A DNA stretch of 64,000 nt from Candidatus Enterousia sp. (GTDB lineage Bacteria > Pseudomonadota > Alphaproteobacteria > Rs-D84): positions 7,363 to 71,362 of the forward strand of contig JAZTWM010000004.1 in the NCBI GenBank assembly GCA_045635825.1. The letters are read 5' to 3'. The notes beneath the pieces were generated by a model. That model saw nothing but the letters and a program-made list of their open reading frames with translations, had not been told where the DNA came from and searched no databases. The position numbers and the translations under genes are program-made. How positions within the stretch are numbered: the stretch's first letter is position 1; the number at the start of each line of letters is the position of its first letter. This document shows, one piece after another, positions 486-63,933 of the stretch.

Positions 486-517
486 TAAGATTAAATCAAT
501 TTGATTTATCAATAAAA

Positions 518-549
518 GTCCGCAATCTAGTATGTTTGCGGATTTTTTT
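518..549 (+). terminator. rho-independent terminator directly after rpsK
   Basis: GTCCGCAA-loop-TTGCGGAT hairpin followed by a run of 7 T. Confidence 0.75.
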
Positions 550-632
550 ATGGGTTTATTTTTTAAAAAATACTTGCGGATTAATTTTTTTCGTACTATC
601 TTGACTCTTAATACACAAAAAAGGATTTATAA

Positions 633-1163
633 ATGAAGAAAAACGCATTGCCACAACTGAATGTGGCCAAACAGGAAGATTTGTTAAGTACGCCAATTAA
701 TCAAATGGTGGTATATGATCATTTAACAAAATCTTTAAATAGAACGCATTATGCAGGTCGTGATTTGTATTGGTTTGCAGGTGATGCGATTGCCAACATA
801 GCAAAAAAGCGTATTGATAATGCTTTGTTAGCAGAAGGTAAACAGGTCGTTGCAAGTGCTGTTAAAGGTGTTCCAGAAATGTCTTGGAACGGTGATTTGG
901 AATTGATTCAATATCCTTTGGCTGAAAAGTTTTCACAAAAGATGGCGGGTAATTTAATTGTTTTTAATATCCATACCGGCTTGTATGAAGTTTTGCCAGA
1001 TGGTAATTGGTTGGGTGTTGATCCTGTTGTTAATGGTATTATACCACGTTTGACCAGCATGAATCAGCATTCTGGCATGCATGCATTTTTGGTTGCAATG
1101 GGTCGTAACGATAAGGCACGCGACAAGATTGTTGCAGAGTTTGCAAAGTCACGTCAAAAATAA
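633..1163 (+). CDS. hypothetical protein, cytoplasmic-looking, no recognisable family
   Basis: 176-aa ORF, ATG preceded by AAGGA; no signal peptide or TM segment; no motif I recognise. Confidence 0.55.
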   Translation: MKKNALPQLNVAKQEDLLSTPINQMVVYDHLTKSLNRTHYAGRDLYWFAGDAIANIAKKRIDNALLAEGKQVVASAVKGVPEMSWNGDLELIQYPLAEKFSQKMAGNLIVFNIHTGLYEVLPDGNWLGVDPVVNGIIPRLTSMNQHSGMHAFLVAMGRNDKARDKIVAEFAKSRQK

Positions 1164-1180
1164 TATTTGTGGGACAGTTG

Positions 1181-1597
1181 ATGAAAAATTACTTCAGTAC
1201 TGTTGTAGAGTATGTAAAAAACTTGTTTCCTGGTCGTGCAGCGGTGGTTGTGCCAAGTGATAACCCAAAACTGGATGCAGAGGTTTTGTATTCTTTGGCG
1301 ACGGATTTGTTTTATACGAATACACTTGGTGGGGGACGGGACTGGTACTGTTTCACACGTGTTTGTGATATGCCGATTGCAAAATATATTTTGGCCAGTA
1401 ATGGTATAGATCCGGCAAAGTACGGTCGTCGTTTTTTGTGTAACCCGACCCCTATGTTTCGTGTACGTATGTCCGAGTTGCATAATAATTTGTCGGCACG
1501 TGACTTTGTAGAGCGTGTTATGGATGTGGATGCCGGTAAAATGGATATGGTGCGTGTGAATGCCCGTATTGCAGAGATTAGGCAAAAATTGAAATAA
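1181..1597 (+). CDS. hypothetical protein
   Basis: ORF-track 1169-1597 begins with GTG; first ATG at 1181 (MKNYFSTVVEY...); 18 nt after previous stop, probably co-transcribed; terminator follows. Confidence 0.5.
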   Translation: MKNYFSTVVEYVKNLFPGRAAVVVPSDNPKLDAEVLYSLATDLFYTNTLGGGRDWYCFTRVCDMPIAKYILASNGIDPAKYGRRFLCNPTPMFRVRMSELHNNLSARDFVERVMDVDAGKMDMVRVNARIAEIRQKLK

Positions 1598-1627
1598 AAA
1601 AAATCCCCGTTTTGGGGATTTTTTTTA
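1596..1627. terminator. bidirectional hairpin terminator
   Basis: A-run, ATCCCC-GTTT-GGGGAT, T-run; lies between convergent genes ending at 1597 (+) and 1625 (-). Confidence 0.8.
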
Positions 1628-2482
1628 TCGTTGTCTTTGTAACATTATTACGTGTTCTTCTTTGTTGGTTGTGTCCATATACATTTTGGCCCAATCCCTG
1701 AAGCGTCTGGATAATGTTCGGTATTGTTCAAGGTTTTTGTCCAATGCCAGACCAGGGCCAGTTTGAACCAGTATGAATCCGCCAGGACGTACGTGTTGGC
1801 GTAGGTTTAGCAGTGTTGGTTCGATTTTTTTAGGTGCCCATTCAAAAATATTGGACAGGTTGATTACATCATATTGTTTATCTAGTTTTGTATGAACATT
1901 GATTGCATCTGACCATATGAATGGGAACGGTGTTTGAACCTGTGATTGCAATTGTTCGTATGATGTTGGGGTCAAAGAAGGGTACAGTTCTGTGCCCAAG
2001 CCATTTGAAAATATTTTGTAACCATCCATAGATTGCAGTACGTGGGCGCTGTCTGGGGACAGGTTTGGTAAAACTTTGTCCATGCCTTTGACCTGGGCGT
2101 GGTGTGGTGCACGATGCAGTTCATGCAACATTTTGTTGTATTGTTCATATGGCATTTTGGATTGCAGTGCGGCAACCTTAATATCTGATATCACCTTGGC
2201 AAATGCGCTGATGTCAAATGTATCGATGTTTTTAGCCCCCGCCAGTTTATAATACAGCGCCTGGTCGCCACTGCCAGCGATTGTTAACACATTGTCGTGT
2301 GGTACATTTTGTGTCAGGCCTGTGGTGTATGCCAGTTCTTCATTTGTTGAAACATATGCGGGCATATATTTTAAGTCTGAATCTGGAAACATAAAGTATG
2401 CGGGTACCAATGCACCATATGTATCTGTTGGTTTGCCGTAGTGTATTTTTGCATCTTGTGCGTTAAACTTTGATAAAGCCAT
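1625..2482 (-). CDS. SAM-dependent methyltransferase-fold protein, DUF3419/BtaA-like
   Basis: 285-aa ORF with GGAGGA RBS. VLTIAGSGDQALYYKLAGAKNIDTFDISAFAKVISDIKVAAL resembles the DUF3419 N-terminal SAM-binding region, and DVINLSNIFEW / LRQHVRPGGFILV resemble later methyltransferase motifs. Confidence 0.55.
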   Translation of the reverse strand: MALSKFNAQDAKIHYGKPTDTYGALVPAYFMFPDSDLKYMPAYVSTNEELAYTTGLTQNVPHDNVLTIAGSGDQALYYKLAGAKNIDTFDISAFAKVISDIKVAALQSKMPYEQYNKMLHELHRAPHHAQVKGMDKVLPNLSPDSAHVLQSMDGYKIFSNGLGTELYPSLTPTSYEQLQSQVQTPFPFIWSDAINVHTKLDKQYDVINLSNIFEWAPKKIEPTLLNLRQHVRPGGFILVQTGPGLALDKNLEQYRTLSRRFRDWAKMYMDTTNKEEHVIMLQRQR

Positions 2483-2628
2483 ATTTATCCTCCATTGCTC
2501 CTGTTAATATAGTACAAAAATACAGAATGTCAACAGTGTTGTTGTTTGGGTTTACAGAAAGTCGTGATTTTTTGCTTTTATAAAATTGGAATGTGTGATA
2601 AAATCCAATAAATTGGAAGGGATATTTT

Positions 2629-5589
2629 ATGAGAAAGATTGCAATTTTATCTATGTTGCTGGCTGTTTTTGTGGCGGATTCGCATGCTGCGATACGTCCA
2701 ACAGGTGGGCGTGCATCACGTGGTCCATCGTCTGCTGGTTCAACTGCAACAACATCAACCAAGGCGGTTGGTGCACGTTCTGCACGTACATCGACAACTG
2801 CAAAAAAGCCTGCTGTTGCGGCACGTGCGGCATCTAATTCTAAGACCGCGCCCAAGGCAACAGTTGCGGCACGTGCGGGGGTGACACAAAAGGTTATTGG
2901 TACAGGCACCAAGGTTGCAGCGGCGGCAAAGAATGTTGTGGTCAGTGAAGAATGTCAGGCCAAGTATGATGGATGTATGGATTCTTTTTGTATGCTGGAT
3001 AACGAGACCGGGGGCAGATGCTTATGCAGTGATAAAAATGCAGAGTTAGATGCAATCTTGGCTGAAATTGAAAAGTTAGATCAGCAATCTTATCAAATGG
3101 CGACATTTGGGGTCGAAAAAATTGAAATGGGTGCAGATGCAGATGCCGCGATTGCCAGTGCAAATGCAGCGGCACAATCTGTTATCAAGGAAACGGAATC
3201 AAAAAAAACAGCACGTAAAGCATTGGATTTATCGCTGTGGGATGAACCGGTTGATTTAGATGATACGGATGATGTTTTTGGTGGAATGGCATCATCACCG
3301 GTTGATGGCAAAGAAGGGGATGCGTTGCATCGTGCGGCAGCCCAGTTGTGTGTTGCCCAGATTCCAGAATGTGCGGGTGATTTAGATATGCTGCAGATGA
3401 TGTATGCACAGCGTATCAAGTCTGATTGTACGGCATATGAGAACAGTTTGAAGCAGCAAAAAAAATCCAGTACACAAAAATTGGCGACTGCAGAAAAAGC
3501 ATTAAGAGAGGCGGCGTTAGAGCAACTGCGTACAGCAAACAAATATGATTTAGGCCAATGTACGGTTGAGTTTAAAAAGTGTATGCAGACAACCGGTGGT
3601 TGTGGTGATGATTTTGCACAATGTGCATCGGTTGTTGCGTCTGATAATACGAATTTGAACAAATCTACATCCAGAAAACAGAAAAATTATGCGATCAAGG
3701 GGGCTGTGACCACGATTGAAATCTCTGCATCTACGTATGATGCATTGATGGCTAAAAAGCCCTTGTGTGAATCTGTTACAAAGTCTTGTGTTAATGTCGC
3801 AGGACAGGTGTGGGATACTTTCCTGCGTGAAGTCGCACCGCAAGTTAAAAATGCTGAATTGATTGCAGAAGATAAAGCAAGACAAGACTGTATCGGTAAT
3901 ATCTCTTCCTGTTTCCAAAAGGCCTGTAAGGATACAATGGATCCTAATGACCCAGATGGTTCATATGATATGTGTTTGTCCAGACCAGAAACCATGCTGA
4001 ATCTTTGTAAGATTCCTTTGAATGCATGTGGTATTGATGCTTCTTCTGCAGACAAGGCACAAGATTCTATGATCTGGGACTTCGTGGTCGCTAGACTTGC
4101 TTCTATGAGAGTTGATTCCTGCACAACAGAGGTTAAACAATGTTTGCAAAGCGATGATAGATGTGGTGAAGATTATGCTAATTGTATCGGATTGGATACG
4201 GATACAATAATTCGTATGTGCCCATATGATAAATTGACTGGCTGTCAAAAGGTTTATGGCGAAACTGATATTCGTGGTGATGCGGTTTATGAAGAGTTGG
4301 CCATGATGGTTCAGGGAATTATGCTGAATATTGATAATAACTTTATGGTTCAATGTCAAAATGCAGCGAATGAAGCCATGTTAAAGGTGTGTGGTGATAC
4401 AGAAAACTGTAATGCATTGACCACCGATAGCGGAATTGGTGCACGTGCATTGGATTATAAGATTTGTGAATATTCTGGTTCAGAAGATAGTCTGGATATT
4501 GATTATAACAAGTGTAGAACAGATATTTCACAAGTTTTGGACAGCGAATTGGGGCGTGTTGAAGGTGCAACCAGTGCCGGTTTGGGTGCGGTCACACCAT
4601 TCGCAGGCGTTATAGATGGTGTTATTTATTGGGAATCTGTGGACTTTGATGATGATGGAAAACTGATTTCTGTTGATGAATATTTGGCCAAGTTGGATGA
4701 CGCCAACATTTCTGCCCAGCAAAAAGAAAAAGTAAAATCTGAATTGGCGGTTTTGCAACGTAATATTGATGTTGCAATAAGTGCAATTGAATCTGATCCA
4801 ACGGTTCAATATTGTATGACAGGACGCGAAGTTCAGGGTATGAAAAAAATTGACAAAGACGGCGTTGCTACACGTACGCGTATTGGCGAAAAAAGTGCAG
4901 ATGCGGCACGCTTCCCAGAATTGACCAAGCAAATGCGTATGGTTATTGCGTCCGCGGCATTAAAAAAGGCCAAGGATAACTATTACAAAAAGTATGACGA
5001 GTTAAATGATAAAATGTTGCAGGATTATGCGACCTTGGGCGAGCGAATTTCAAAGATTCAAGGCGAAAATTCATTGGATGTAAAACGTGAATTGGCACGT
5101 AAATCATGTGTTGCATTTGTAGACATGGCATCTTTGCCAAAGTCACCAAATCCACCAAAAAGTGCATTTGGTAAAATTGCGGCCATGGTTGCAATTGTTG
5201 GTGCTGCGGTTGCAATTCCATTTACGCTTGGTACATCAACAGTTGTAATTGGTGCATTGACAGTGACAACTACTACAGGTGTAGGTGCATCCGCTGCAAT
5301 TGGTGCAGGCGCGGCAGTAGTTGCAGGTATTGGTATGTTGGGTAACGCTGGTTCTGGGAAAGCAAATGGCGAAGATAGCAAGGGGGTATTGGATTTGGTT
5401 GGTTCCAAGCAGCTTAATCAATGGAATTACAAGGAAACGATCACCACAACATTTGATTGGGATAAATTGATCTGTAAAAAATGTACACGTACACAAAAAT
5501 GTTCCAAGACCAAGAATCCGTTGTTTGGTAATAAATATTGTAAAACATGGGCGGATGCGGTTGAAACATGTAATGACACCCAGTTCTAA
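2629..5589 (+). CDS. secreted cysteine-rich repeat protein (family member A)
   Basis: 986 aa, RBS GGAAGGGA. Signal peptide MRKIAILSMLLAVFVADSHA, then an S/T/A/R-rich linker and CQAKYDGCMDSFC-x9-CLC. Modules QCTVEFKKCMQTTGGCGDDFAQC and SCTTEVKQCLQSDDRCGEDYANC. Gly/Ala-rich hydrophobic segment at aa 847-910 and tail VETCNDTQF. Collinear paralogue of 24966 and 27187. Confidence 0.85.
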   Translation: MRKIAILSMLLAVFVADSHAAIRPTGGRASRGPSSAGSTATTSTKAVGARSARTSTTAKKPAVAARAASNSKTAPKATVAARAGVTQKVIGTGTKVAAAAKNVVVSEECQAKYDGCMDSFCMLDNETGGRCLCSDKNAELDAILAEIEKLDQQSYQMATFGVEKIEMGADADAAIASANAAAQSVIKETESKKTARKALDLSLWDEPVDLDDTDDVFGGMASSPVDGKEGDALHRAAAQLCVAQIPECAGDLDMLQMMYAQRIKSDCTAYENSLKQQKKSSTQKLATAEKALREAALEQLRTANKYDLGQCTVEFKKCMQTTGGCGDDFAQCASVVASDNTNLNKSTSRKQKNYAIKGAVTTIEISASTYDALMAKKPLCESVTKSCVNVAGQVWDTFLREVAPQVKNAELIAEDKARQDCIGNISSCFQKACKDTMDPNDPDGSYDMCLSRPETMLNLCKIPLNACGIDASSADKAQDSMIWDFVVARLASMRVDSCTTEVKQCLQSDDRCGEDYANCIGLDTDTIIRMCPYDKLTGCQKVYGETDIRGDAVYEELAMMVQGIMLNIDNNFMVQCQNAANEAMLKVCGDTENCNALTTDSGIGARALDYKICEYSGSEDSLDIDYNKCRTDISQVLDSELGRVEGATSAGLGAVTPFAGVIDGVIYWESVDFDDDGKLISVDEYLAKLDDANISAQQKEKVKSELAVLQRNIDVAISAIESDPTVQYCMTGREVQGMKKIDKDGVATRTRIGEKSADAARFPELTKQMRMVIASAALKKAKDNYYKKYDELNDKMLQDYATLGERISKIQGENSLDVKRELARKSCVAFVDMASLPKSPNPPKSAFGKIAAMVAIVGAAVAIPFTLGTSTVVIGALTVTTTTGVGASAAIGAGAAVVAGIGMLGNAGSGKANGEDSKGVLDLVGSKQLNQWNYKETITTTFDWDKLICKKCTRTQKCSKTKNPLFGNKYCKTWADAVETCNDTQF

Positions 5590-5593
5590 TAAA

Positions 5594-5614
5594 ATCCCCC
5601 GGATGGGGGATTTT
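5594..5614. terminator. hairpin terminator between convergent genes
   Basis: TCCCCC-GGAT-GGGGGA followed by TTTT, preceded by AAAA. Confidence 0.7.
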
Positions 5615-6653
5615 AAATTTCCGTTATGTCTGTTATGACGGTTATGCCGGCGGATTGCCATTCTGTGATATAGTTGTCCAGATCCAGAATATTTGTCGCC
5701 CCCAGATAAATTACGGGGTGTAATTCGTGGTCGTTGGCATATTGTGTGACCTGGGCGATTGGGGATGGGCGAACCTTGCCTGATGCAAACCAGTTTTCTG
5801 TGTCAATAACCCAAAAGTCGGGGTCTGTATGGCATGCGATTGCATGGGTGTCTGTTACGATTAAGTCATTGATAATTTGGTATGGACGGTTGTTGCTTTC
5901 CAGATGCTCAACCAGTTTTGTTAGGTCTGTTGCGTAATCGGTGTTTGGTGTGTTGTTTGGGGCCTCTGTTTCTGTTTCTGTTTCTGTTTCTGTTTCTGTT
6001 GGGGCGTCAAAATCTATGGTTGAAAATGTTGGCATTTCTGTAAATACTGGTGTGTTGTCCATTTCAACAGGTATGTCAAAATCGGTTGGTAATGGGAATG
6101 TGTCGCCAGACATGTCTGTTATGTCGGATGTATTTTGTGGTGCTGTATTGATGTCGGGTGTTTGTTTGATATCAATACTGTTGAAAATAGAAGTTTGTGA
6201 TTGGCCCATGTGGTGGTGGGCGCGTCTGTATGCGGGACGTAATTCCGCAGGAATATCAGGTGATAAATCAACCTTGATGGTTTCTTCGTCTGGACCCAAA
6301 GATGGCGTGTCGCCACTTGATTCTGGTGTGGTGTCATCTGTTGCTTTTTTTGTTGGGCGTAAAAACTTTGGTAATGGGATTTTGGGCAGTGGTACCGTTA
6401 TCAATGGTTTTTTTGTGCGGATGATTAATGTTGTGCTGGCCATGTACAGGGGCAGGGCGGCCAAAATTAATAGGCCAAATACGTGCCCTGCAAATCCATG
6501 CAGGCGTGCGTGCATCAGACGGTGCCACATGTGTCCATCAAACATATTAAAATTAAACAAGAAATACAAAATTGCCCACATGACGATGATATAGCCAATC
6601 GTCCACTGTATGGCGTGTTTGTGGTTCTTGAAGATGTCTGTTATCTTTTTCAT
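5613..6653 (-). CDS. membrane protein with acidic low-complexity linker and (TE)6 repeat
   Basis: 346 aa; two N-terminal hydrophobic segments (WTIGYIIVMWAILYFLF, VFGLLILAALPLYMASTTLII); P/D/T-rich linker including TETETETETETE; globular C-terminal approx. 110 aa of unknown family. Confidence 0.7.
   Translation of the reverse strand: MKKITDIFKNHKHAIQWTIGYIIVMWAILYFLFNFNMFDGHMWHRLMHARLHGFAGHVFGLLILAALPLYMASTTLIIRTKKPLITVPLPKIPLPKFLRPTKKATDDTTPESSGDTPSLGPDEETIKVDLSPDIPAELRPAYRRAHHHMGQSQTSIFNSIDIKQTPDINTAPQNTSDITDMSGDTFPLPTDFDIPVEMDNTPVFTEMPTFSTIDFDAPTETETETETETEAPNNTPNTDYATDLTKLVEHLESNNRPYQIINDLIVTDTHAIACHTDPDFWVIDTENWFASGKVRPSPIAQVTQYANDHELHPVIYLGATNILDLDNYITEWQSAGITVITDITEI
5965..6000. repeat. 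(TCTGTT)6 hexanucleotide microsatellite
   Basis: Six perfect tandem TCTGTT units read on + strand; encode (TE)6 in the minus-strand gene 5613-6653. Confidence 0.95.
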
Positions 6654-6661
6654 TTTGATAT

Positions 6662-6689
6662 ATTATAGACAATGTATATAATTTGTCAA
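6662..6689 (-). promoter_or_regulatory. near-consensus sigma70-type promoter, TTGACA-N16-TATAAT
   Basis: Read on minus strand; the -10 hexamer ends 8 nt before the ATG at 6653, and no Shine-Dalgarno sequence is present, suggesting a leaderless or near-leaderless mRNA. Confidence 0.6.
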
Positions 6690-6785
6690 TATTAAAAATA
6701 AAGCGGAAAATATATAAAAAGTGCTTTTTTTATAACTGTTTTTATGTCATAATAATAGGGATAATATTGAAAGGGGGGTATTTTA

Positions 6786-17491: not shown

Positions 17492-18628
17492 TAAACTGTT
17501 TATTAGTTCAAGAATTTCTGCGGTTATTTTTTTGGGGTTAAAACGGTTTAATGATAACTGACTGTTTTTGATTATTTCTTGTCGTGGAATACGATTATGA
17601 TATATGTTTGACATGATTTGTGATAAAGCATGTTTGTCGCCAATATTAAATAATAGACCTGCTGTGCCATTTAAGAGTATTTCTTGTGCACCGTTTTTGT
17701 GCTGTGTTGAAATGTTTAGTGTGCCAACAGATGCCGATTCTAATAATACCATTCCAAAACCTTCGCTGTGACTGGATAATATGTGTGCCATAGATTTTTG
17801 CATATAACCAAAGGGATTAGTTTGTGTGCCTAGGAAGATAATATGTTCTTTGGCGGTGCTTTGATTTGCATGTTGTTCAAGACCGGTTCGATTTGGGCCG
17901 TCCCCAATAATCAATAGTTTTATATCGGTTGTATTTTCAGTTCTTAGGAAAATGGTAAATGCATCAATTATTGTATGGATGTCTTTCGGGCTGCCTAGTC
18001 TAGATATAGAGCAGAAGTATCGACCGGGATATGTGGGGCCTGTTTTTGCTTTGGTAATAATATGTTCTGGTGTAATAGGATTATATATCCGAATGATTTT
18101 GCTGGAATGTGATGGATAGTGTAATGTAAACTCGTCTTTAAATTCATCTGTTAATACAACCATTTTATCATAATATTTCAACCTGTTGATAAGTTTGCTT
18201 TTTTGAAAGAAGTCAAAAGAGCCATGACACCATGTTATTTTTGGGGTTTTGATATGCCGTAGTTCCTTGAAAAAGGATGCGTTTTTATAGTCTATGTATA
18301 TATCATGATTGTTGATATGGAATATTGAACGTCTGTACATTTTATATAAACTGAAGATTAGTTTACGCAGATTTTTGAGAGGGAAAAAATTTGTGCTTTT
18401 TTTTAGGTTTTCAAAATATGGTAACATGGGATAGATGACTTTTAGTTTTATTTCTGGGTGATGGTTAAACCAATCTTGGTAATATTTTTCTTGTAGTTTG
18501 GATTGCATATATACTGATATTTTTAGGTCGGGATATTTTAATAGTTCTTCTAGGGTGGAAATAAATACTGTTTCAACGCCCCCAACAATCATGTCGGGAA
18601 TACAAAAGGCAATTTTTTGTTTGTTCAT
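17489..18628 (-). CDS. glycosyltransferase, GT4-like (GT-B fold)
   Basis: ORF-track start 18709 is rejected because a terminator hairpin lies inside that extension. ATG at 18628 gives MNKQKIAFCIPDMIVGGVETV... EGFGMVLLESASVGT matches the E-x7-E GT4 motif. Confidence 0.85.
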   Translation of the reverse strand: MNKQKIAFCIPDMIVGGVETVFISTLEELLKYPDLKISVYMQSKLQEKYYQDWFNHHPEIKLKVIYPMLPYFENLKKSTNFFPLKNLRKLIFSLYKMYRRSIFHINNHDIYIDYKNASFFKELRHIKTPKITWCHGSFDFFQKSKLINRLKYYDKMVVLTDEFKDEFTLHYPSHSSKIIRIYNPITPEHIITKAKTGPTYPGRYFCSISRLGSPKDIHTIIDAFTIFLRTENTTDIKLLIIGDGPNRTGLEQHANQSTAKEHIIFLGTQTNPFGYMQKSMAHILSSHSEGFGMVLLESASVGTLNISTQHKNGAQEILLNGTAGLLFNIGDKHALSQIMSNIYHNRIPRQEIIKNSQLSLNRFNPKKITAEILELINSL

Positions 18629-18658
18629 TTTCTTACTTCTTTTTTGTTCGTTTTTTAT

Positions 18659-18886
18659 TGGAAAAAGAAAAGACCACATATTTTGTGGTCGGGAAGTTAA
18701 GAAAATCATACACTAAATGACCCCACCGGTTTTTGGAGTTTTTCCTGTTGTATGACCGGTGGCTTCCCGACATTATGGTGTCGAGAAAATGGCACGATGT
18801 GTGCCTGGTATTAATGGATTACGACAGTTAATGCCGTAGTGTACGGGTTTTCTTACGACCCCGAAGCCTTATCCCTAAGGTTTCGA
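18659..18886 (-). promoter_or_regulatory. candidate structured 5' leader (riboswitch/attenuator-like) or independent sRNA upstream of the glycosyltransferase gene
   Basis: Downstream of the promoter at 18893-18921. The minus-strand RNA has local hairpins CCUUA/UAAGG, GGGU/ACCC, CGUA/UACG, GGCAC/GUGCC, CGACA/UGUCG and CCACCGGU/ACCGGUGG. It ends in GACCACA-loop-UGUGGUC plus UUUUCUUUUU (18659-18690), 30 nt before the ATG at 18628. Confidence 0.5.
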
Positions 18887-18892
18887 TTTTGG

Positions 18893-18921
18893 ATTATATA
18901 TAGTAGGGCGTTGGATTTCAA
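18893..18921 (-). promoter_or_regulatory. sigma70-type promoter, TTGAAA-N17-TATAAT
   Basis: Read on minus strand: perfect -10, 5/6 -35 and 17-nt spacer. Divergent from the rpoA promoter. Confidence 0.65.
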
Positions 18922-18934
18922 GTCGTTTATCTAT

Positions 18935-18963
18935 TTGACTTTTGGGTTTTGTTGATATAAAAT
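18935..18963 (+). promoter_or_regulatory. sigma70-type promoter for rpoA, TTGACT-N17-TAAAAT
   Basis: 5/6 matches in both hexamers and a 17-nt spacer. About 70 nt upstream of the rpoA ATG. Confidence 0.6.
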
Positions 18964-19034
18964 ATCGACCGCATGTGCGTTGTGTACATGGCCGTTTTGG
19001 CGAAAATGATAAACTAAGCTAAAAGGAAACTTAA

Positions 19035-20063
19035 ATGATTGAAAAAAATTGGATGACCTTGATTAAGCCAAAAAAGCTGACAATCAAGCAAGATGAACAT
19101 AATCCTAATATTGCAACTTTGATCGCAGAACCATTGGAAAAAGGATTTGGTTTGACATTGGGGACTGCTTTGCGTCGTGTATTGCTGTCTTCTTTGCAGG
19201 GCTGTGCACCAATTTGCATTAAAATTGACGGCGTTCAGCATGAATTTTCCAGCATTTCTGGTGTTCGTGAAGATGTAACAGATATTATCTTGAACTTGAA
19301 GGGTGTTTATTTCAAGGCATTAACAGAAGGCCAGCACAAGGCATTTTTAAAGGTTAAAGGTCCCGCAGTTGTTACAGCAGGTATGATTGAAACAACAGGT
19401 GGTGTCGAGGTTATGAACAAAGATGCTGAAATATGCACTTTGGATAAGGGTGCAAATTTGGATATGGAAATCACATTGGGTACAGGTCGTGGTTATGTTC
19501 CTGCATCACAACATGCAGATGGTTTACCATTGGGTGTTATTCCAGTTGATTCTATCTTTTCACCAATCTTGAACGTTGCAAGTGATGTTTTGCCAACACG
19601 TGTTGGTCAGTCAACAGACTTTGATAAGTTGGAATTGACAGTTAAGACAAATGGTTCTGTTACACCAGAAGATGCGATTGCATTTGCGGCACGTATTTTG
19701 ACAGACCAGTTGGTTGTATTCATTAATTTTGAAGATCCTGCACAGTTAAATGCACCAACCGAAGAAGAAAAAGCAAAAGATGCATTGCCATTTGATCCAA
19801 AGTTGTTAAAGCATGTTGATGAATTGGAATTGTCAGTTCGTGCGAATAACTGCTTGAAGAATGATAAAATCAATTGGTTGGGTGAATTGGTTCAAAAGAC
19901 AGAAGCCGATATGTTGAAGACACCAAACTTTGGTCGCAAGTCTTTGAACGAAATCAAGGTTCAGTTGGAAGCCATGGGATTGGGCTTGGGTATGGAAGTA
20001 CCAGGTTGGCCGCCAGAAAATATTGCTGAATTGGCCAAAAAGTACGAAGACCCATACAAATAA
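19035..20063 (+). CDS. rpoA: DNA-directed RNA polymerase subunit alpha
   Basis: 342 aa. N-terminal domain [22 protein letters not shown]-terminal domain [45 protein letters not shown]. Confidence 0.97.
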
Positions 20064-20526: not shown

Positions 20527-20967
20527 ATGAGACATATGAAAGCAGGTCGTACATTCAATCGCGACACAAATGCACGCAAGGCCCTGTTTATTGGTCTGGC
20601 AAAAAACTTGATTGAAAAAGAACAGATTAAAACAACTTTGCCAAAGGCAAAAGATTTGCGTAGTGTCGTTGAAAAATTGATTACTCGCGCCAAGGTTGAT
20701 ACAGTTGCAAATCGTCGCTTGACAGCATCTGAATTGGGTAATTCTTCTGCAAAGACAGTTAAGAAATTGTTCGAAGTTTTGGGCCCACGCTATGCAACAC
20801 GTCCAGGTGGTTATACACGTGTTTTGAAGGCTGGTTTCCGTTATGGTGACGCAGCACCAATGGCGATTATCGAATTGGTTGATCGTGATGTAAATGCCAA
20901 GAAAGCAGCACCTGTTGCAGAAGTTGTTACAGAAGAAGTTGCTGAAACAAAGGCAGATGCAGAATAA
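20527..20967 (+). CDS. rplQ: 50S ribosomal protein L17
   Basis: 146 aa, [30 protein letters not shown]...[23 protein letters not shown] is typical L17. Confidence 0.95.
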
Positions 20968-21847: not shown

Positions 21848-24469
21848 TTATTTGTGGTCCGCACAATATCCCCATTGTGTGTTTGCGGCTGTTTCTTTGT
21901 TGAATGTTGGATGTATTGGATCGCCTGTGATGTCGTGGCAACCATCGGTCTTTTCTGTTATGCCGTCGCCCTCCGTTGAACATGTGCCGTATGCACAACA
22001 TGTTTTGTTTTGTACTTTATCTACCCAGACAGAGTCGACCCAAATACCCCCCAGGCGTTCACATTCTTGTGACAGGGCGTTTGCCATATCTATGTGCAGT
22101 TGGTTCATAACAATGTTTACGTCTTGCAGGATGTTTGTTGGTAATACATCGCTGGATTGGGATGGGCGGACGCATGTTTGCATGGCATAACGAACAAGTT
22201 TTTGATAAAGACTGCCGACATAGTCGTCGCATTCGTTATCTTCTGTGGTTGGGGAATCGCTAATTACTATTTCTTTAGGTTTGTCGGTTCCGCCTGCACA
22301 GGTGTAGCCCGAAGGGCATGGTTCGCATGTGTTGTCGACTTGAGGGGTGCTATCGGCCTTGCCGTTATATTGCATATAGTATCCAGCAGCACAACTGGTG
22401 TATGCACAAATTGGGGCGGCGGTTCCACCAGGGTATGTGCATATTGCACCTTCGCGGGCTTTTATGCATGTGTTTCCAACGGTTGGGGTGCCGTTGTGTT
22501 CTGTGCCAGATGGGCCTGCCATATAGGAACCTGCAGGGCATGATGTGTATATTTTGCCACAAGTGTATGTAGGGTCCGTTACCGGTGTTGGGCGTGTTCC
22601 TTGATAATCGTCTTGTGTTGTAGTGTTGGATTCGCCAGGGGAACCGTTACCGCCGATTGTTTGGTCTGTGCTGGTGGATGTGGTATCCTGGTTGCATTTG
22701 GCAATTGTGGCGTATTGCTGACTGCCGGGGGCATAGACACGACATGTATATGGGTAGGCGTGCAGAGTGTCGTTGCTGGGGACGGCACACATGTTTTTTG
22801 CAAAGTCTATCAGGGTTTCACGACATTGTAGGCCGATTTGCAGGTCTGTTTTGTCGTGCATTGCGGTCAGTAGTGCCTGCATCCCATCAGGGCCGCCACC
22901 ATACAGGTTTGAACATGTGTCTAATTTTTCTTGGCACATTTGTTCGGCCAGTTCCAGGCGTGCACCAATTAATAGTTGTTCGTTTGTATTGCTGAAATCT
23001 TTTAGGGATTGGGTTTGTTCGTCATAGCATTTGTTAACCACGTCAAGACATTCGTTTTTTACCTGGCGGATGCGTTCGTGTTGACCTTGGTAGATTTCTG
23101 TGATTGCCTGGCGTAGAAATTCGTCCCATACATCATCGGCCAAATCGCGACATGTGTCTAGACTGTTCTTGGCAAAAGGGCGCATGGAGTTCAGTTTTGC
23201 AATTAACATTCTGTTGGTTTGGTTTGTTAGGATGTCGCCAGATAGTGAGATTTGAGATTCCAGTTGATAAAAATTAGGGCTGTATATTGGTTCGCCGGTT
23301 TCGTATGTTAGGTACAATCCAGTGATGTCTAGACAGTGGACATAGTCTGTGCCGCATGCAGTGTTGGCTGTGATATCTGTGCGAACCAATGACATGCAGT
23401 CATTGATTGAAGATGAATTGTGGGTGTTATAGTTTTCAAGGCGGGCCAGATTCATTTCACGTTCTGTTGAACGAATGGCGCTGTTTGCTTCAACTAGTTT
23501 TTTGTCCAGACCGTTTAGTACAATTGAGCAGTCGTTTTCTATATACATGCCGTATGCAGAGACCACCATATTTTGTGTGGTTTTGTCTGGACATTTATCG
23601 ATTGTTATTTCGGCACATTGTGCGTGTACGGCATTATACAGTGCTTCGCCAGATAGGTTTGCAATATTTACGCCGCCCGTTAAATCTGTGGTTGCCCAAA
23701 TAGAGTTTATGTTGCCTGCAATATCAAGTGTGCCTTGGGTTGATAATGATTTGGTTTTGGATTTGGATAATACATCAGTGATGCCTGCAAGTTGTAGTGC
23801 GGCATCGGACGAGTCTTTGTTGGCAGATTGGTATAGTTCACCACTGGATGCGGATATCATTGCGTTAACTTCGTCTGCGGATTTATCAATTACAGACAGG
23901 TTCAGTATATGGAAATCTTGTAATGAATTTGATGACTGGCTTAGGGCGCGTTCACGTTCTTGGACGGCAGATAGTTTGGACGAGCATACGCAGCGACGGT
24001 ATGTGTCGTTGGCGGTTCCGCAAAATTGATCCATGCATGTAAAATATGCGTCACGACAAGTGTTGTATCCGGTGCCGAATGTGTTCGATTGTGTGGTGTT
24101 AAGTGTTATTGTTGCACGTGCGGTGTTTTTTGTGTTCTGGGGATTAGAACTGAGACGTATGGCTGTCTTGTTTTGTTGTGTGCGTAGGCGACTGTTGCTT
24201 GGTGTTGTGCGTGTTGTAACAGATGCGGGGGTTGCAGTGCGTGCAGATACTGTGTTTTGACGATTGGTATTTACGGGTTTTGTGGTACGTTGTAATTTGC
24301 GCTGGACCGTAGCACGTGCAGCGGTGCCTTCGTTTCGTGTGTTTGTGATGGTTCGTTGTGTGTTAGTGTTCGTGTCGCCACGATGTATAGTGTTTGCATC
24401 ACGAACAGCAGCGTCAGCATTGCAGACGCCCAGGATAATAGCCAGGGAAAGTTTTATAATCCTTCTCAT
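21848..24469 (-). CDS. secreted cysteine-rich protein (family member D) with C-terminal C-x-x-G-Y-type repeats
   Basis: Start chosen at MRRIIKLSLAIILGVCNADA (24469). T/N/R-rich linker, then TCRDAYFTCMDQFC-x9-CVC. C-x6-C pairs (ECLDVVNKC, MCQEKLDTC). C-terminal SCPAGSYM, SCAAGYYM and EPCPSGYTCAGG repeats. Confidence 0.8.
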   Translation of the reverse strand: MRRIIKLSLAIILGVCNADAAVRDANTIHRGDTNTNTQRTITNTRNEGTAARATVQRKLQRTTKPVNTNRQNTVSARTATPASVTTRTTPSNSRLRTQQNKTAIRLSSNPQNTKNTARATITLNTTQSNTFGTGYNTCRDAYFTCMDQFCGTANDTYRRCVCSSKLSAVQERERALSQSSNSLQDFHILNLSVIDKSADEVNAMISASSGELYQSANKDSSDAALQLAGITDVLSKSKTKSLSTQGTLDIAGNINSIWATTDLTGGVNIANLSGEALYNAVHAQCAEITIDKCPDKTTQNMVVSAYGMYIENDCSIVLNGLDKKLVEANSAIRSTEREMNLARLENYNTHNSSSINDCMSLVRTDITANTACGTDYVHCLDITGLYLTYETGEPIYSPNFYQLESQISLSGDILTNQTNRMLIAKLNSMRPFAKNSLDTCRDLADDVWDEFLRQAITEIYQGQHERIRQVKNECLDVVNKCYDEQTQSLKDFSNTNEQLLIGARLELAEQMCQEKLDTCSNLYGGGPDGMQALLTAMHDKTDLQIGLQCRETLIDFAKNMCAVPSNDTLHAYPYTCRVYAPGSQQYATIAKCNQDTTSTSTDQTIGGNGSPGESNTTTQDDYQGTRPTPVTDPTYTCGKIYTSCPAGSYMAGPSGTEHNGTPTVGNTCIKAREGAICTYPGGTAAPICAYTSCAAGYYMQYNGKADSTPQVDNTCEPCPSGYTCAGGTDKPKEIVISDSPTTEDNECDDYVGSLYQKLVRYAMQTCVRPSQSSDVLPTNILQDVNIVMNQLHIDMANALSQECERLGGIWVDSVWVDKVQNKTCCAYGTCSTEGDGITEKTDGCHDITGDPIHPTFNKETAANTQWGYCADHK

Positions 24470-24539
24470 TCGTGTATATATATAATATACTTTACCAAAA
24501 AATGGTTTTTTTAACAAGAAAAATACATAAAGATGCTAT

Positions 24540-24965: not shown

Positions 24966-27152
24966 ATGAAAATAAGAATTCTTGCGACCTTGCTGGTGTT
25001 AATACCGGGTGTGTCTTTTGCTGCACAGCGTAGTGAACAATCGCGTGTTGGGGTTAATCGTGTGGCAATGGCGGGTGTTCGTGGACCGAATATGACCAAG
25101 ACGTTGTCTTCGACGACTAAGCCGACTGTGCCCTTGAATCCAGGTGACGGTACGGATAAAAACCCAGGGGATGCGGATGATGAAGATGATGTTGTAGATT
25201 CTGGTGATAAAGAAGATTCAACAGATAATGATGCGGATGTTAATCCAGATGCCGGTGATGAAGTGATTACGGACGGTGACTGTCGCGAGGCGTATCGTGC
25301 ATGTATGGATGAGTTTTGCTTGTTAGATGAATCAGAAGGGTATCGTTGTGCGTGTTCGGATAATATAAATCAAGCAAAGTCCTTGATTCAAGAAATTCAG
25401 CGTATTCAGGCAGAGGCGGATAAATTGTACACCGAAGAAGTTGAGCGTATTCAATTGGGGGCCAAGGCTAAGTTGGTATTTGGTGAAAGTGAGGCGGCAA
25501 AGAAGAGTTCGCGTGCATCGGGTTTGAGTTTTGCAGAATGGTTAAAGAGTGGTGATGACGATTCTGAATCTTTGGATGCAGACGAGTATATTGGTGATGG
25601 TTTATATGGAATGGCTGCTGATTTTTGTCAGGCGGAATTAAAGGCGTGTGGTGCCAAGGCAGATATGGAAGAAATGTTGTATCTGCGTCAGGTGACGGCA
25701 GATTGTAAGACGTATAATTATTATTTGGCGGATCAAAAAACAAATGCAGAGTCGAATAAGAGGACGGCAGAAGCGGCGGTTCGTCAGGCCCGTTTGGCGA
25801 TGCTGGATACAACGGATAAATATAATCGTGGTGAATGTTTGTTGGCGTATCGTTCTTGTATTGCAGACAAGGGTGGGTGTGGTAACAATTTTGAAAACTG
25901 TTTAGATGCAGATTTGCTGGGGCGTCGTGCACATGCGTGCGAAAATGTATTAGATCAATGTATGGCGTCACGCAGTTATGTTTTGCAGGACTGGGAGGCC
26001 GAGGCTGAGGCTATTTTAGTAGATGCTGCAAAATATGCGGATAAATATCGCAGACAGACATGTTTGGCACAGATTCAGGTTTGTTTAGAAGATGGTTGTT
26101 CGACTGCAACGAATTCGGCGTGTTTGTCCGATGTGAATGTTGCAGCAGGTGTTTGTCCGATTATTGATGAGTGTGATTCTATTATCCCAGGGTTAAAGAC
26201 AGTTGTTAATGATAAGTTGGGATATTTGCGTACACAGTTCTGTCAAAATGATGTTGATGCGTGTTTGAAGGATAAATGTGGTGCGAACTTTACGGCACCC
26301 GAATGTATCGGTAAAACGCCTGCACAAATTGTTGAATTGTGTCCACAGACAATGTTCCCATCATGTAAGAACGAAACGCAATATGATATTATTGTATCGG
26401 CGGCGGTATTGCAGATGGATTATCAGTTGATGCAGGGGTGTGTGAATTATTTTGGTGAACAGTTGGGTAAGACATGTGGAACAGACATGTCATGTTTGCC
26501 AAGCGATGATACTGTTGTTGGGTTGACTGATGTTCCGGGGTCTGAACAAGAAATGATTGAATTGCGTGCACGTGTGCGTGATAATGCCAAGGTTGCGGTT
26601 GATGGCTTCTTTGAAAAGTTTGAACAGGATAAGACGGTTGCAGCCTGTGCTGATGCTGAAAAACCAACAGGTAAAAATAGTTTAGGGGTCACTGTATTTA
26701 ATACGGCAAAGTTGATTGCGTATATTGGTGCAGAAAATCGTGCAATGCGTGAATTGGAAACCAAGATTTCCGAATTGTCGCGTAAACAGGATTTGGCCAA
26801 GGCAGAAGAAACATGTTATTCTATGTTCAAGCCAGAGACGCCAAAAACAGGTGATAAGAACTATAGTTATATTCGCAGTGTAGTTTTTGAACCAGCGTTG
26901 CGTAATTGTCATGTGTGCCGTATGCAACAGGTTTGTGAAACGGGTGGTGAATCCAAGGCAACGTCTGCATTAAAAGCGGCCGGCGGTGGATTGGCCAGTG
27001 GTGCTGCAATGGGTACAATGGTTAATGCAGGTTGGGGTACGGCCATTGGTGGTATCGTTGGTGCGGTTGGTGCCGGTATCGGTGGTGCATTGTCTGGTGG
27101 ACAAGAAGAGTTCTGTCAGCAGATTGAATCTTGTGAAGATGTTAATATGTAA
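24966..27152 (+). CDS. secreted cysteine-rich repeat protein (family member B)
   Basis: 728 aa. Signal peptide MKIRILATLLVLIPGVSFA and an acidic linker, then DCREAYRACMDEFC-x9-CAC. Modules ECLLAYRSCIADKGGCGNNFENC and FCQNDVDACLKDKCGANFTAPEC. Gly-rich hydrophobic segment at aa 668-712 and tail IESCEDVNM. Confidence 0.85.
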   Translation: MKIRILATLLVLIPGVSFAAQRSEQSRVGVNRVAMAGVRGPNMTKTLSSTTKPTVPLNPGDGTDKNPGDADDEDDVVDSGDKEDSTDNDADVNPDAGDEVITDGDCREAYRACMDEFCLLDESEGYRCACSDNINQAKSLIQEIQRIQAEADKLYTEEVERIQLGAKAKLVFGESEAAKKSSRASGLSFAEWLKSGDDDSESLDADEYIGDGLYGMAADFCQAELKACGAKADMEEMLYLRQVTADCKTYNYYLADQKTNAESNKRTAEAAVRQARLAMLDTTDKYNRGECLLAYRSCIADKGGCGNNFENCLDADLLGRRAHACENVLDQCMASRSYVLQDWEAEAEAILVDAAKYADKYRRQTCLAQIQVCLEDGCSTATNSACLSDVNVAAGVCPIIDECDSIIPGLKTVVNDKLGYLRTQFCQNDVDACLKDKCGANFTAPECIGKTPAQIVELCPQTMFPSCKNETQYDIIVSAAVLQMDYQLMQGCVNYFGEQLGKTCGTDMSCLPSDDTVVGLTDVPGSEQEMIELRARVRDNAKVAVDGFFEKFEQDKTVAACADAEKPTGKNSLGVTVFNTAKLIAYIGAENRAMRELETKISELSRKQDLAKAEETCYSMFKPETPKTGDKNYSYIRSVVFEPALRNCHVCRMQQVCETGGESKATSALKAAGGGLASGAAMGTMVNAGWGTAIGGIVGAVGAGIGGALSGGQEEFCQQIESCEDVNM

Positions 27153-27186
27153 GTTGTAATTGTTACGAGGTTTATGGAGAGAGAAA

Positions 27187-40289: not shown

Positions 40290-40406
40290 AATGTGGGTGA
40301 ATGCTTTGATTTGTAATGGGGATTTGACCGATGATCGTGGGCATAGATGTTTTATGAATAAAGCCAACCCTGGGGGTGTTTTATTGTATTATTATTAAAA
40401 AAAATG

Positions 40407-40415
40407 TGGTATAAT
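40407..40415 (+). promoter_or_regulatory. extended -10 element TGGTATAAT
   Basis: TGnTATAAT match that overlaps the ORF-track ATG at 40404. This argues the real start of the downstream gene is further 3'. Confidence 0.5.
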
Positions 40416-40445
40416 TTTTGGGAAATTGATAAGTGGAGAGAACCC

Positions 40446-41750: not shown

Positions 41751-42401
41751 ATGAAATTAGAGTCAAATGGTATTTTAATTGGATTGCGTCCATTTAATGA
41801 ACGTGATGCAATTGCACAAATCTTTAGCCAGGATTTTGGTGTCGTGGTGGGGATGTTGCGTGGTGCAAATATTGCAAAAAAGAATAAGCCTTTGTTGGGG
41901 CAGTATGGTCATATGGTGTGGAATGCGCGCCTGGATTCGCAATTGGGGACAATGCATTGGGATATAGAAAAGAATTTGTCGGTTGCATTGTTAATGTCGC
42001 CTGACAAATTGTCCTGTATGAATGCGGGATTTGAATTGTTGGTCACATTGTTGCCAGAACGTCAGGCGTATCAAGAATTGTATGAAGAAACGATTCGTTT
42101 AATGTTTGGGTTGGCGTCAGATATGCCGAATGCATATTTAAATTGGGAAGTCGCTTTGTTGCGTGAATTGGGCTATGCACTGGATTTGTCCAGGTGTTCA
42201 GGATGTGGGACATTAAATGATTTGAATTATTTGTCGCCACGTACCGCACGTGCGGTTTGTGATTCGTGTGCCAGACCATATTTGAATAAACTGTATCGAT
42301 TGCCTGTGGATTTAGGGGTGACGGGACGCTTTCTGGAAAGTGTCTGTAATCAACAGGGTGTTAATATTCCAGTAATGCGAAAAATGTTAAAATTGGATTG
42401 A
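41751..42401 (+). CDS. recO: DNA repair protein RecO
   Basis: ATG at 41751 gives MKLESNGILIGLRPFNERDAIAQIFSQDFGVVVGMLRG (OB-fold N-terminus). C-terminal Cys cluster CSGCG...CDSC. Confidence 0.8.
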   Translation: MKLESNGILIGLRPFNERDAIAQIFSQDFGVVVGMLRGANIAKKNKPLLGQYGHMVWNARLDSQLGTMHWDIEKNLSVALLMSPDKLSCMNAGFELLVTLLPERQAYQELYEETIRLMFGLASDMPNAYLNWEVALLRELGYALDLSRCSGCGTLNDLNYLSPRTARAVCDSCARPYLNKLYRLPVDLGVTGRFLESVCNQQGVNIPVMRKMLKLD

Positions 42402-42478
42402 TTTTATCCAGAATTATTTCTTGCGATTTTGATAATTTTTGCTATGGTGATTTTGTTCAACAGAAGAAGGAGAAAATC

Positions 42479-60292: not shown

Positions 60293-60372
60293 ATTTATCT
60301 TGATTTTATCATAAATCGTGACTTGAATCAAAATGCTTTATTTGTTAAAATAATAAAAAAGAGAGATTGGAT

Positions 60373-63805: not shown

Positions 63806-63933
63806 ATCTTTTCTTTCCCTTGGGTGGGGTACCATACCCGCACACTATTTAATATAGTACTAATGGCGTGTTTGTCAATAGAAAAAGGGTGTTTTTTTAT
63901 GGTTTTGGTTGGGTGATTTTTTTATATTTTTAC

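Follow-up and report, generated by a model that had tools for sequence, protein, structure and literature searches.

The stretch analyzed here, 64,000 nucleotides of Candidatus Enterousia sp. DNA (contig JAZTWM010000004.1; referred to below as the window), carries at positions 2629–5589 a gene encoding a large protein rich in cysteine (Cys), designated A, and five further genes whose products, G, F, E, D and C, form with A one homologous family of six paralogues, as judged by sequence comparison. The corresponding open reading frames (ORFs; lengths in amino acids, aa), in which a four-Cys module was searched for with a hidden Markov model (HMM), are as follows.

2629–5589, forward strand: member A, 986 aa, 38 Cys (3.9%).
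27160–29682, forward strand: member G, 840 aa, likely start at ATG 27187; closest paralogue of A; two modules (1.5e-15, 8.5e-15).
24966–27152, forward strand: member F, 728 aa, two modules; adjoins G on the upstream side.
21848–24517, reverse strand: member E, 889 aa, a divergent paralogue with five Cx6C pairs.
12026–12892, reverse strand: member D, 288 aa, 20 Cys; the minimal member, corresponding to A residues 1–470.
9950–12004, reverse strand: member C, 684 aa, a remote member (module HMM 1.2e-5).

Compared with A by BLASTP, G gave an E-value of 2e-123, F of 6e-46 and E of 9e-21, and hhalign comparison of family alignments assembled from related loci returned 100% for G, F and E, 98.2% for D (E = 4e-14, over A residues 1–470 and with an identical pattern of Cys gaps) and 94.4% for C (E = 9e-8, over A residues 288–497). 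The HMM of the 30-aa module, which was trained on 293 instances and run against all 281 window ORFs of at least 60 aa, matched A, G, F, E, D and C only (independent E-values 2e-17 to 1e-5), with two copies each in A, G and F, one each in E and D, and one or two in C; this result is the reliable one, a plain regular-expression count having been polluted by antisense ORFs of a poly-Q tract. Cx6C pairs numbered 11 in A, 10 in G, 8 in F, 6 in D and 5 in C, against means of 1.4, 1.6, 1.7, 1.3 and 0.8, respectively, in shuffled sequences, and the observed counts were equalled in 0 to 2 of 2000 residue shuffles. An N-terminal hydrophobic segment was found in every member by hydropathy. The proposal of an earlier sequence-only reading of the window, that A represents an expanded family of large Sec-exported Cys-rich proteins, was thus confirmed by six homologues (hhalign 94–100%). 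The six ORFs total 13,263 bp, or 20.7% of the window; the 19.1 kb given in that reading for Cys-rich ORFs with a signal peptide was reproduced (19,065 bp) when the OmpA-domain ORF 34221–35855, with 9 Cys (1.7%), was counted in, but it exceeds the sum of the homologous ORFs, and nine signal-peptide ORFs with at least 3.4% Cys total 17,430 bp.

All module instances quoted in the sequence-only reading were present in F (24966), G (27160/27187), C (9950) and D (12026); however, the copy in C is spaced Cx6Cx4Cx6C, two residues shorter than the spacing claimed, and the Cx6C pairs mentioned for ORF 21848 (E) numbered five. Member C carries two Cx6Cx4Cx6C units as well as a glycine-zipper stretch, a basic region, CxC repeats and a poly-Q tract. 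Member E has lost C318, C380, C433, C449 and C505 (numbering of A throughout), and its C-terminal half is different, with Cys repeats of the CxxGxY type. The units of the C-terminal third of E (CxxGxY...C; CPAGSYM, CAAGYYM, CPSGYTC) are reminiscent of eukaryotic furin-like or ephrin-receptor-like repeats, and a second type of Cys repeat unrelated to the Cx6C pairs, with CxC-x11-15-C units such as CTCNDTNYEYNTDTKIC, was found in protein H (40404–41678, forward strand) and in the C-terminal third of C; none of these repeats in H, C and E had a significant match in Pfam. Proteins B (6786), H (40404) and I (21045) are exported and Cys-rich and lie outside the family: B, I and the neighbouring protein P were tried as remote members and rejected (hhalign below 3%, the 27% obtained with I spanning the signal peptide only), and H gave no BLASTP match to the family and contains no Cx6C pairs.

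Protein A consists of a signal peptide, a basic linker rich in S/T/A/R, a helical core with Cys ladders, a hydrophobic Gly/Ala-rich segment that is probably a hairpin, and a C-terminal beta domain with Cys. The features downstream of the signal peptide are as follows.

2689–2940, forward strand: linker, A residues 21–104, basic, S/T/A/R-rich, predicted to be disordered.
2953–3027, forward strand: N-terminal Cx6Cx4C-x9-CxC motif, A residues 109–133 (CQAKYDGCMDSFC...CLC), invariant family-wide.
3556–3789, forward strand: six-Cys unit 1, A residues 310–387, comprising module 1 (311–332) and a downstream Cx6C (380/387).
3889–4029, forward strand: putative three-rung ladder region, A residues 421–467, from Cys co-loss.
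4117–4245, forward strand: six-Cys unit 2, A residues 497–539, comprising module 2 (498–519) and a Cx7C (531/539).
5158–5352, forward strand: hydrophobic Gly/Ala/Thr-rich stretch, A residues 844–908 (65 aa), read as a glycine-zipper-like membrane hairpin.
5377–5586, forward strand: C-terminal beta-rich domain, A residues 917–986 (about 70 aa), 5 Cys, terminating in DTQF.

When the translation was checked, all the motifs quoted earlier for A were found in their places, including SLWDE, which begins at aa 202, module 1 (QCTVEFKKCMQTTGGCGDDFAQC, from aa 310) and module 2 (SCTTEVKQCLQSDDRCGEDYANC, from aa 497), both of the form Cx6Cx6Cx6C (independent HMM E-values 4e-15 and 2e-17, respectively). 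The N-terminus, MRKIAILSMLLAVFVADSHA, has the n/h/c layout typical of a Sec signal peptide, with a hydropathy peak at residues 3–23, and the linker contains 15 K+R, 2 D+E, 23 S+T and 21 A over 86 residues; layout, hydropathy and composition thus bear out the signal peptide and S/T/A/R-rich linker predicted in the sequence-only reading. In the AlphaFold2 (AF2) model, the predicted local distance difference test (pLDDT) score is below 50 across residues 16–102, and the conservation profile showed that residues 21–80 vary among orthologues, whereas the final 25 or so residues of the linker (VAARAG.TQKVIGTGTKV...) are kept. The AF2 models are 49% helix, and 27 of the 38 Cys of A are helical. All five Cx6C pairs checked in A (109/116, 241/248, 311/318, 421/428 and 498/505) are placed in helices by the model, in which helix 308–321 holds C311 and C318, and helix 367–386 holds C380. 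Distal to the core, the model contains beta hairpins and a 72-residue helix (763–834), followed by the hydrophobic stretch.

The Cys positions were compared in an alignment of 150 representatives (mutual identity of at most 50%) and the window paralogues. The core of about 500 aa (A residues 109–594) contained 29 Cys columns, nearly all of them with Cys in at least 95% of the 155 sequences. Within and beyond the core, certain Cys were present or absent in pairs. The counts (both present/first only/second only/neither) were 130/0/0/22 for 433–449, 139/0/0/16 for 318–380, 146/0/1/6 for 421–467, 126/0/6/7 for 505–531 and 42/0/3/74 for 952–981; the association was weaker for 958–971 (104/0/8/5, with eight discordant sequences), and both Cys of the pair 613–629 were missing in just three sequences (64/1/1/3). 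In addition, C109 and C248, and exactly these two, were lost together in one F-like sequence. According to parsimony on a neighbour-joining tree, the independent events numbered one for 318/380 (E clade), two or three each for 433/449 and 421/467, five or six for 505/531, and about 25 gains or losses for 952/981. An even number of Cys in the mature protein was found in 115 of 120 A orthologues (38 Cys in A), 110 of 133 representatives and 108 of 120 D orthologues (20 Cys in D).

Co-loss in pairs, even parity and the helical placement of the Cx6C pairs together indicate, as far as alignments and models can tell, that the Cys form ladders of intramolecular disulfides between antiparallel helices. 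Co-loss supports one rung of each of four predicted staples (109–248, 318–380, 421–467 and 505–531), while their partner rungs (116–241, 311–387, 428–460 and 498–539) are deduced, because those Cys never vary. The bonds 109–248 and 116–241 are probably rungs of one staple, and in the ladder that begins at C421, the putative bonds C421–C467 and C433–C449 follow from co-loss, whereas C428–C460 is deduced. The picture differs from the earlier description of a protein built from a repeated four-Cys module of fixed spacing, since the module occurs just once or twice per protein, inside a core that is conserved as a whole. Nor do Cys 1–4 of the module appear to pair among themselves: Cys2 co-varies with a Cys 26–62 residues downstream (318–380, 505–531), which indicates a bond outside the module. 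The module would instead comprise the first helix of a staple (Cys1 and Cys2) and a small CG-D-F-x2-C loop shut by a presumed Cys3–Cys4 bond, and what recurs is a helix-borne Cx6C pair, not the four-Cys module. Modules 1 and 2 matched each other in hhalign (E of about 4e-5), suggesting that the six-Cys unit arose by an old internal duplication. Clusters of Cys that bind metal were considered and judged unlikely: A contains a single CxxC, partner Cys lie far from each other along the chain and disappear in pairs, and export of the proteins also speaks against it.

The disulfide stapling suggested in the sequence-only reading was therefore supported, though indirectly, by pairwise co-loss, even parity and a DsbA-like gene in the window. 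The accompanying analogy with Cys-rich envelope proteins of other host-associated bacteria was weakened with regard to those of chlamydiae, which cross-link between molecules, as the pairing pattern and the parity favour intramolecular over intermolecular bonds. Like chlamydial OmcA and OmcB, the proteins of the family are Cys-rich, exported to the envelope compartment and encoded in the reduced genome of a host-associated bacterium (PMC12306168); high Cys content is shared by several unrelated exported proteins of the window (A–I), and the odd mature Cys counts of E, C, H and I leave thiols that could cross-link. An outer-membrane complex of the chlamydial type, in which intermolecular Cys cross-links produce a rigid shell in a transmissible stage, is nevertheless very improbable here. 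The family is helical, and loss of Cys in defined pairs, together with even counts in 83–96% of members, is what intramolecular bonds predict; no member matched OMP3 or OMP6 in Pfam, and RodA, MreB and MrdA, components of the cell-wall machinery, are reportedly encoded in the lineage (PMC12306168), so that a substitute for peptidoglycan is not obviously needed.

The distribution of the family was assessed in several ways. The database homologues of A (1015) and D (701) were without exception unnamed or annotated as "hypothetical protein", came from metagenome-assembled genomes (MAGs) of Alphaproteobacteria and carried no Pfam domain; the 120 listed of the 701 D homologues span 273–315 aa. A scan of one genome per GTDB species with the N-terminal motif as query gave at least 598 matches, 589 of them confirmed. 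The best 80 matches belonged to Candidatus Enterousia or to unclassified Alphaproteobacteria or Rickettsiales MAGs from human, ruminant, horse, chicken and mouse guts and, according to isolate names, from termites, a few being in evidently mis-binned MAGs. Among 1.84 billion representatives, the core profile matched 867 clusters (50% identity), 706 of them with E ≤ 1e-10, and the members of ten representative clusters were solely "hypothetical protein" of Rickettsiales. The family is known so far only from the Candidatus Enterousia/Rs-D84 lineage of uncultured gut Alphaproteobacteria with reduced genomes. Enterousia (order Rs-D84) has been described as fermentative, with genomes below 1 Mbp and without respiration, most biosynthesis and standard transporters, and Rs-D84 has been proposed to obtain metabolites from other cells (PMC12306168); the small genome assumed in the sequence-only reading agrees with this and with a related circular MAG of 958,618 bp. 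These Cys-rich proteins go unmentioned in that study of Rs-D84 (PMC12306168), and no literature linking Rs-D84 or Enterousia to Cys-rich proteins was found. Rs-D84 MAGs are present both in lower termites and in flagellate-free higher termites, and the order is therefore not simply a flagellate endosymbiont (PMC11257099).

No named domain was found in the family with Pfam, NCBIfam, PDB or Foldseek, in line with the earlier statement that none was recognized. Scans of the nine Cys-rich ORFs against Pfam-A 2025 and NCBIfam r20 gave nothing significant; the best sub-threshold matches of A were EGF_Pikachurin (11 bits, cut-off 27) and TIGR04104 (15.6 bits, cut-off 45), and G, D, C and E reached no cut-off. 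The best E-value in the PDB profile search was 0.64, and Foldseek searches with the AF2 models gave best E-values of 1.1 (A) and 3.2 (D) against PDB and 0.26 against BFVD. Faint Foldseek matches of the C-terminal beta domain to PP7/levivirus coat and avidin-like proteins were dismissed as noise. It should be noted that these negative fold searches are weak evidence, since the models have pLDDT values of 63 and 69, and fold novelty is unproven.

The closest design principle is, by analogy, the twin CXnC helical hairpin of the CHCH (twin CX9C) and small Tim (twin CX3C) proteins found in the intermembrane space of mitochondria: a pair of Cys set a fixed distance apart on one helix is bonded to a pair on the antiparallel helix, and oxidation is carried out by dedicated machinery in an oxidizing compartment. 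The Cx6C spacing of the family and its location in helices fit the twin CXnC pattern, co-loss backing one rung per staple and the partner rungs being deduced. In contrast to CHCH and small Tim proteins, the spacing is 6 (i, i+7) and not 9 or 3, and several ladders of up to three rungs would occur within one exported bacterial protein with a core of about 500 aa; no match to PF06747 or another Pfam family, and no sequence or Foldseek similarity to CHCH proteins, was found. The Helicobacter Hcp/Sel1-like proteins are likewise secreted, bacterial and alpha-helical, with helix pairs bridged by disulfides between closely spaced Cys, whereas the family has no regular 36-aa repeat, differs in architecture and Cys connectivity and did not match Sel1 repeats (PF08238) in Pfam. 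The term CX6C refers in the literature mainly to a loop of gamma-retroviral Env and was treated as a loose analogy only. Thus, a familiar principle, that of disulfide-stapled helical hairpins and Cys-rich exported proteins of host-associated microbes, is found here in a new form.

The hydrophobic stretch of A (residues 844–908) has hydropathy peaks of 2.23 and 1.75, a pLDDT below 50 and the lowest conservation of any block of A, while the C-terminal domain that follows has strands with pLDDT 76–82, and its pairs C952–C981 and C958–C971 co-vary. Because these Cys pairs co-vary, the domain would lie on the same oxidizing side as the core, and the presence of both in one compartment would therefore call for an even number of membrane passes, i.e., a hairpin. 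Glycine-zipper-type GxxxG stretches of 20–65 aa were found in A, F, B, C and H, those of F, C, B and H being shorter than that of A, with the one in F at its C-terminus (GTAIGGIVGAVGAGIGGALSGG, residues 691–712 by hydropathy); the stretch is absent from G, E and D. Such Gly/Ala-rich segments, which could form a two-helix hairpin, recall the glycine-zipper hairpins of SlyB/Pcp and the Rickettsia 17-kDa antigen, but the family proteins are not lipoproteins, their zipper matches are sub-threshold (F and B weakly matched YiaD_Gzip_OmpA, E = 0.04–0.05) and most members have no such stretch.

The same segments bear on the possibility, which we consider unlikely, that the proteins are effectors, released or displayed to act on the membrane of a host or partner cell. 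The Gly/Ala stretch would then insert into that membrane in the manner of a pore or fusion element, and the helices locked by disulfides would serve as a delivery scaffold, which would give a transporter-poor parasite access to metabolites. The metabolic dependence of Rs-D84 described above (PMC12306168) would suit such a role, as would the glycine-zipper-like stretches of A, F, B, C and H, weak matches to Bacteriocin_IIc, Gly-zipper_YMGG and YiaD, an ankyrin-repeat protein beside the cluster, a PMP-repeat autotransporter in the window and a loose resemblance of the long helices and Gly/Ala-rich segment to class I fusion proteins (CX6C loop). However, Foldseek found no pore-former or fusion protein among PDB and viral structures, G, E and D are among the many members without the hydrophobic stretch, which 105 of 134 representatives lack, and where it occurs in A it is the least conserved part, as expected of a plain anchor rather than an active element, while the core is under strong and uniform purifying selection.

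With respect to localization, no lipobox ([LVI][ASTVI][GAS]C) was found; the first Cys of A is residue 109, and the first Cys of D (ATAC) aligns to C109 without a canonical lipobox before it. No family member matched the autotransporter beta-barrel translocator, whereas ORF 36283–40125 scored 4e-31. These results are relevant to a periplasmic scaffold, a rather unlikely alternative according to which the proteins stay inside the outer membrane as a disulfide-rigid framework, either periplasmic or tethered to the inner membrane, for example bracing an envelope with minimal supply of lipid and peptidoglycan. It would be in keeping with a Sec signal unaccompanied by any outer-membrane translocation signal in the Pfam and NCBIfam scans, with a hairpin anchor whose flanks both face the oxidizing side, as suits inner-membrane tethering, and with high conservation free of any sign of diversifying selection. 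Nevertheless, the long disordered N-terminal linkers fit surface proteins better, as do the ankyrin-repeat neighbour and the PMP-type autotransporter encoded elsewhere in the window, and the present data do not separate such a scaffold from surface display.

A candidate for oxidation of the family is encoded within the window.

42398–43303, forward strand: membrane-anchored DsbA-like thiol-disulfide oxidoreductase (Pfam DSBA 7e-17, Thioredoxin_4 6e-17) with a CGYC active site.

This protein, with a thioredoxin fold and two N-terminal membrane helices, is encoded 37 kb downstream of A and is a candidate oxidase or isomerase for the family; CGYC is the motif of the isomerase DsbC. N-terminal hydrophobic segments, even parity in 83–96% of members and the DsbA-like protein agree with what is predicted of Sec-exported proteins oxidized by Dsb. 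No DsbB or VKOR was seen within the window. Other envelope genes of the window encode LptB, LptC, an OmpA-domain protein, a small beta-barrel outer-membrane protein, a SurA/PpiD-like chaperone, a PMP-repeat autotransporter, an S8 subtilase and a T2SSE-family ATPase, and this set, with the DsbA-like gene, implies a diderm cell with an oxidizing periplasm. The 1280-aa autotransporter (36283–40125, forward strand) combines PMP repeats of the Chlamydia type with an Autotransporter beta-domain at its C-terminus (E = 4e-31). The right end of the window carries a 332-aa secretion ATPase of the T2SSE family, the size of VirB11 (59333–60331, reverse strand), and a 630-aa S8 subtilase (61943–63835, reverse strand), either of which could have a bearing on export or processing of envelope proteins.

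The family genes are organized around ribosomal protein and RNA polymerase genes. About 18.5 kb (window 486–19034) separate rpsK (102–485) from rpoA (19035–20063), which is followed by rplQ (20527–20967); the genes of ribosomal protein S11 and rpoA are usual neighbours in the alpha operon. The interval 486–19034 holds O, A, P, B, C, D and K as well as a GT4 glycosyltransferase gene, and I, E, F and G come directly after rplQ. In the close relative L078, spc-operon genes (L29 to L15, then secY) followed by rpsM and rpsK lie immediately upstream. Across species, the genes keep the orders C-D-K-O-A-P-B and I-E-F-G, and these halves adjoin each other in several genomes. Protein K (13838–17461, forward strand; 1207 aa), which keeps its synteny with the Cys-rich genes in many species, begins with a signal peptide; ankyrin repeats follow at residues 27–91 or so (PDB matches to DARPins, best E = 1e-20), then a hydrophobic segment and a beta-barrel-like C-terminal part. 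Flanking A in almost every relative are genes for a protein with DUF3419 and methyltransferase domains (1625–2482, reverse strand) and for protein P (5613–6653, reverse strand), which has two N-terminal membrane helices, an acidic linker containing TETETE and an uncharacterized C-terminal domain. In single-sequence PDB searches, P and H had no match and K matched ankyrin repeats only. GC skew was positive in every 2-kb window over 1–64000 (0.05–0.35), with cumulative skew climbing without a turn and genes on both strands; as the skew never changes sign, the whole stretch lies on one replichore.

Orthologues of A, F and G were 64–73% identical, whereas those of the neighbouring DUF3419 methyltransferase-like gene were 33–44% identical. 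Within A, conservation of the core was uniform among orthologues (0.8–0.9), with variation only in the linker and the anchor and in two loops, one of them the acidic loop. An exact match to protein A was not on record among assemblies. The ratio of nonsynonymous to synonymous substitution rates (dN/dS) was therefore determined against a close strain with a 94%-identical A protein (P0002) and was 0.18 for A, 0.085 for B, 0.045 for D and 0.48, the highest of the cluster, for C; the cluster genes appear from such comparisons to be under purifying selection. Identity to the close strain was 94.6% for A, 86% for C and about 98% for neighbours. Synonymous divergence from the L078 locus (10001–12937) was 0.175 for A and 0.07 for its immediate neighbours O, P and B, and the raised value for A may be due to recombination at this gene. 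C contains a poly-Q/PAQQ tract (about 10169–10297, reverse strand) and is 684 aa long, compared with 776 aa in a strain with neighbours of about 98% identity. In several related species, A was duplicated in tandem two or three times, at loci L011, L013, L014, L017, L064 and L066 (about 4.7–16 kb in each), the rest of the cluster being single-copy.

The existence of several paralogues, the tandem copies of A in some species, the divergence of A and C beyond that of their neighbours and the dN/dS of C might be taken for the marks of a variable adhesin or antigen family that diversifies for immune evasion, as in extracellular parasites with helical coats stapled by disulfides. The VSG of trypanosomes, the DBL domains of Plasmodium and the VSP of Giardia are also paralogous, exported, Cys-stabilized proteins that face host proteases; however, they are eukaryotic and hypervariable, whereas the present family is conserved with 1:1 orthologues, and no fold or sequence match to them was found. 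As each paralogue has 1:1 orthologues in conserved synteny, as conservation of A, F and G exceeds that of the adjacent enzyme gene, and as dN/dS is 0.05–0.18 for A, B and D with variation confined to linkers and anchor, this explanation is hardly credible, and antigenic variation was rejected on synteny, conservation and dN/dS.

Taken together, sequence comparisons and models support well an undescribed, lineage-restricted family of apparently Sec-exported, largely helical proteins stabilized by defined intramolecular disulfides; intermolecular cross-linking, antigenic variation and metal binding are disfavoured. For the reading as a whole, in which six exported, disulfide-laddered paralogues are oxidized by Dsb and, partly tethered to the membrane, form an envelope or surface assembly, our confidence is slightly better than even. 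The Sec-type signal peptide of each paralogue would direct export to the periplasm, where the helical core would be locked by many intramolecular disulfides. A Cx6C pair, spanning two helical turns of one helix, would bond to the matching pair on an antiparallel helix and thereby produce nested twin Cx6C staples, the predicted partners being 109/116 with 248/241, 311/318 with 387/380, 421/428/433 with 467/460/449 and 498/505 with 539/531. Oxidation would probably be performed by the membrane-anchored DsbA-like CGYC protein. A, F and C would be tethered to the membrane by a glycine-zipper-like hairpin with both flanking Cys domains on the oxidizing side, G, E and D having no such tether. The paralogues would then build an envelope or surface structure, stable and resistant to proteases, that would be needed for life in the gut and for contact with a metabolite-supplying partner; such an assembly is suggested by the fact that they have 1:1 orthologues, stay clustered across species, are under purifying selection along the whole core and occupy so much of a tiny genome.

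Several observations weigh against this reading. Beyond the Sec peptide, no lipobox, autotransporter or beta-barrel domain or known secretion motif that would indicate localization was found in the members. The co-loss of 318–380 is a single event in the E clade, 505–531 has six discordant sequences, probably owing to misalignment of the E clade, and mature Cys counts are odd in E, C and H (also in I). The models of A and D are of moderate to low confidence (pLDDT 63 and 69; predicted template modelling score, pTM, 0.37 and 0.32). The hydrophobic stretch occurs in just 29 of 134 representatives, A had no match to the Pfam glycine-zipper models, and B reached 17.7 bits (E = 0.003) with Gly-zipper_YMGG, below the cut-off of 28.9. 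Finally, re-oxidation of DsbA is unexplained, as DsbB and VKOR were not seen in the window and the lineage is reportedly a strict fermenter that has no respiratory chains (PMC12306168).

Whatever the assembly, the twin Cx6C ladders would add a new spacing beside twin CX3C and twin CX9C, with concrete predictions of bonds. With up to 19 disulfides per protein in an organism that ferments and has no respiratory chains, one may ask what drives periplasmic oxidation in the anaerobic gut. More speculatively, and in our view doubtful, the six paralogues together with B, I, P and K might constitute a lineage-specific surface apparatus, a disulfide-laddered helical coat or contact organelle without counterpart in described bacteria, that attaches to a partner cell and extracts metabolites; if so, a strict gut fermenter would rely on extensive oxidative folding by way of an unknown route of re-oxidation. 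Rs-D84/Enterousia are widespread in human and animal guts, have genomes below 1 Mbp and have no known way of making or importing most metabolites. A family that takes up about a fifth of a 64-kb stretch, is conserved throughout the lineage and has no described relatives is a prime candidate for the machinery of this lifestyle.

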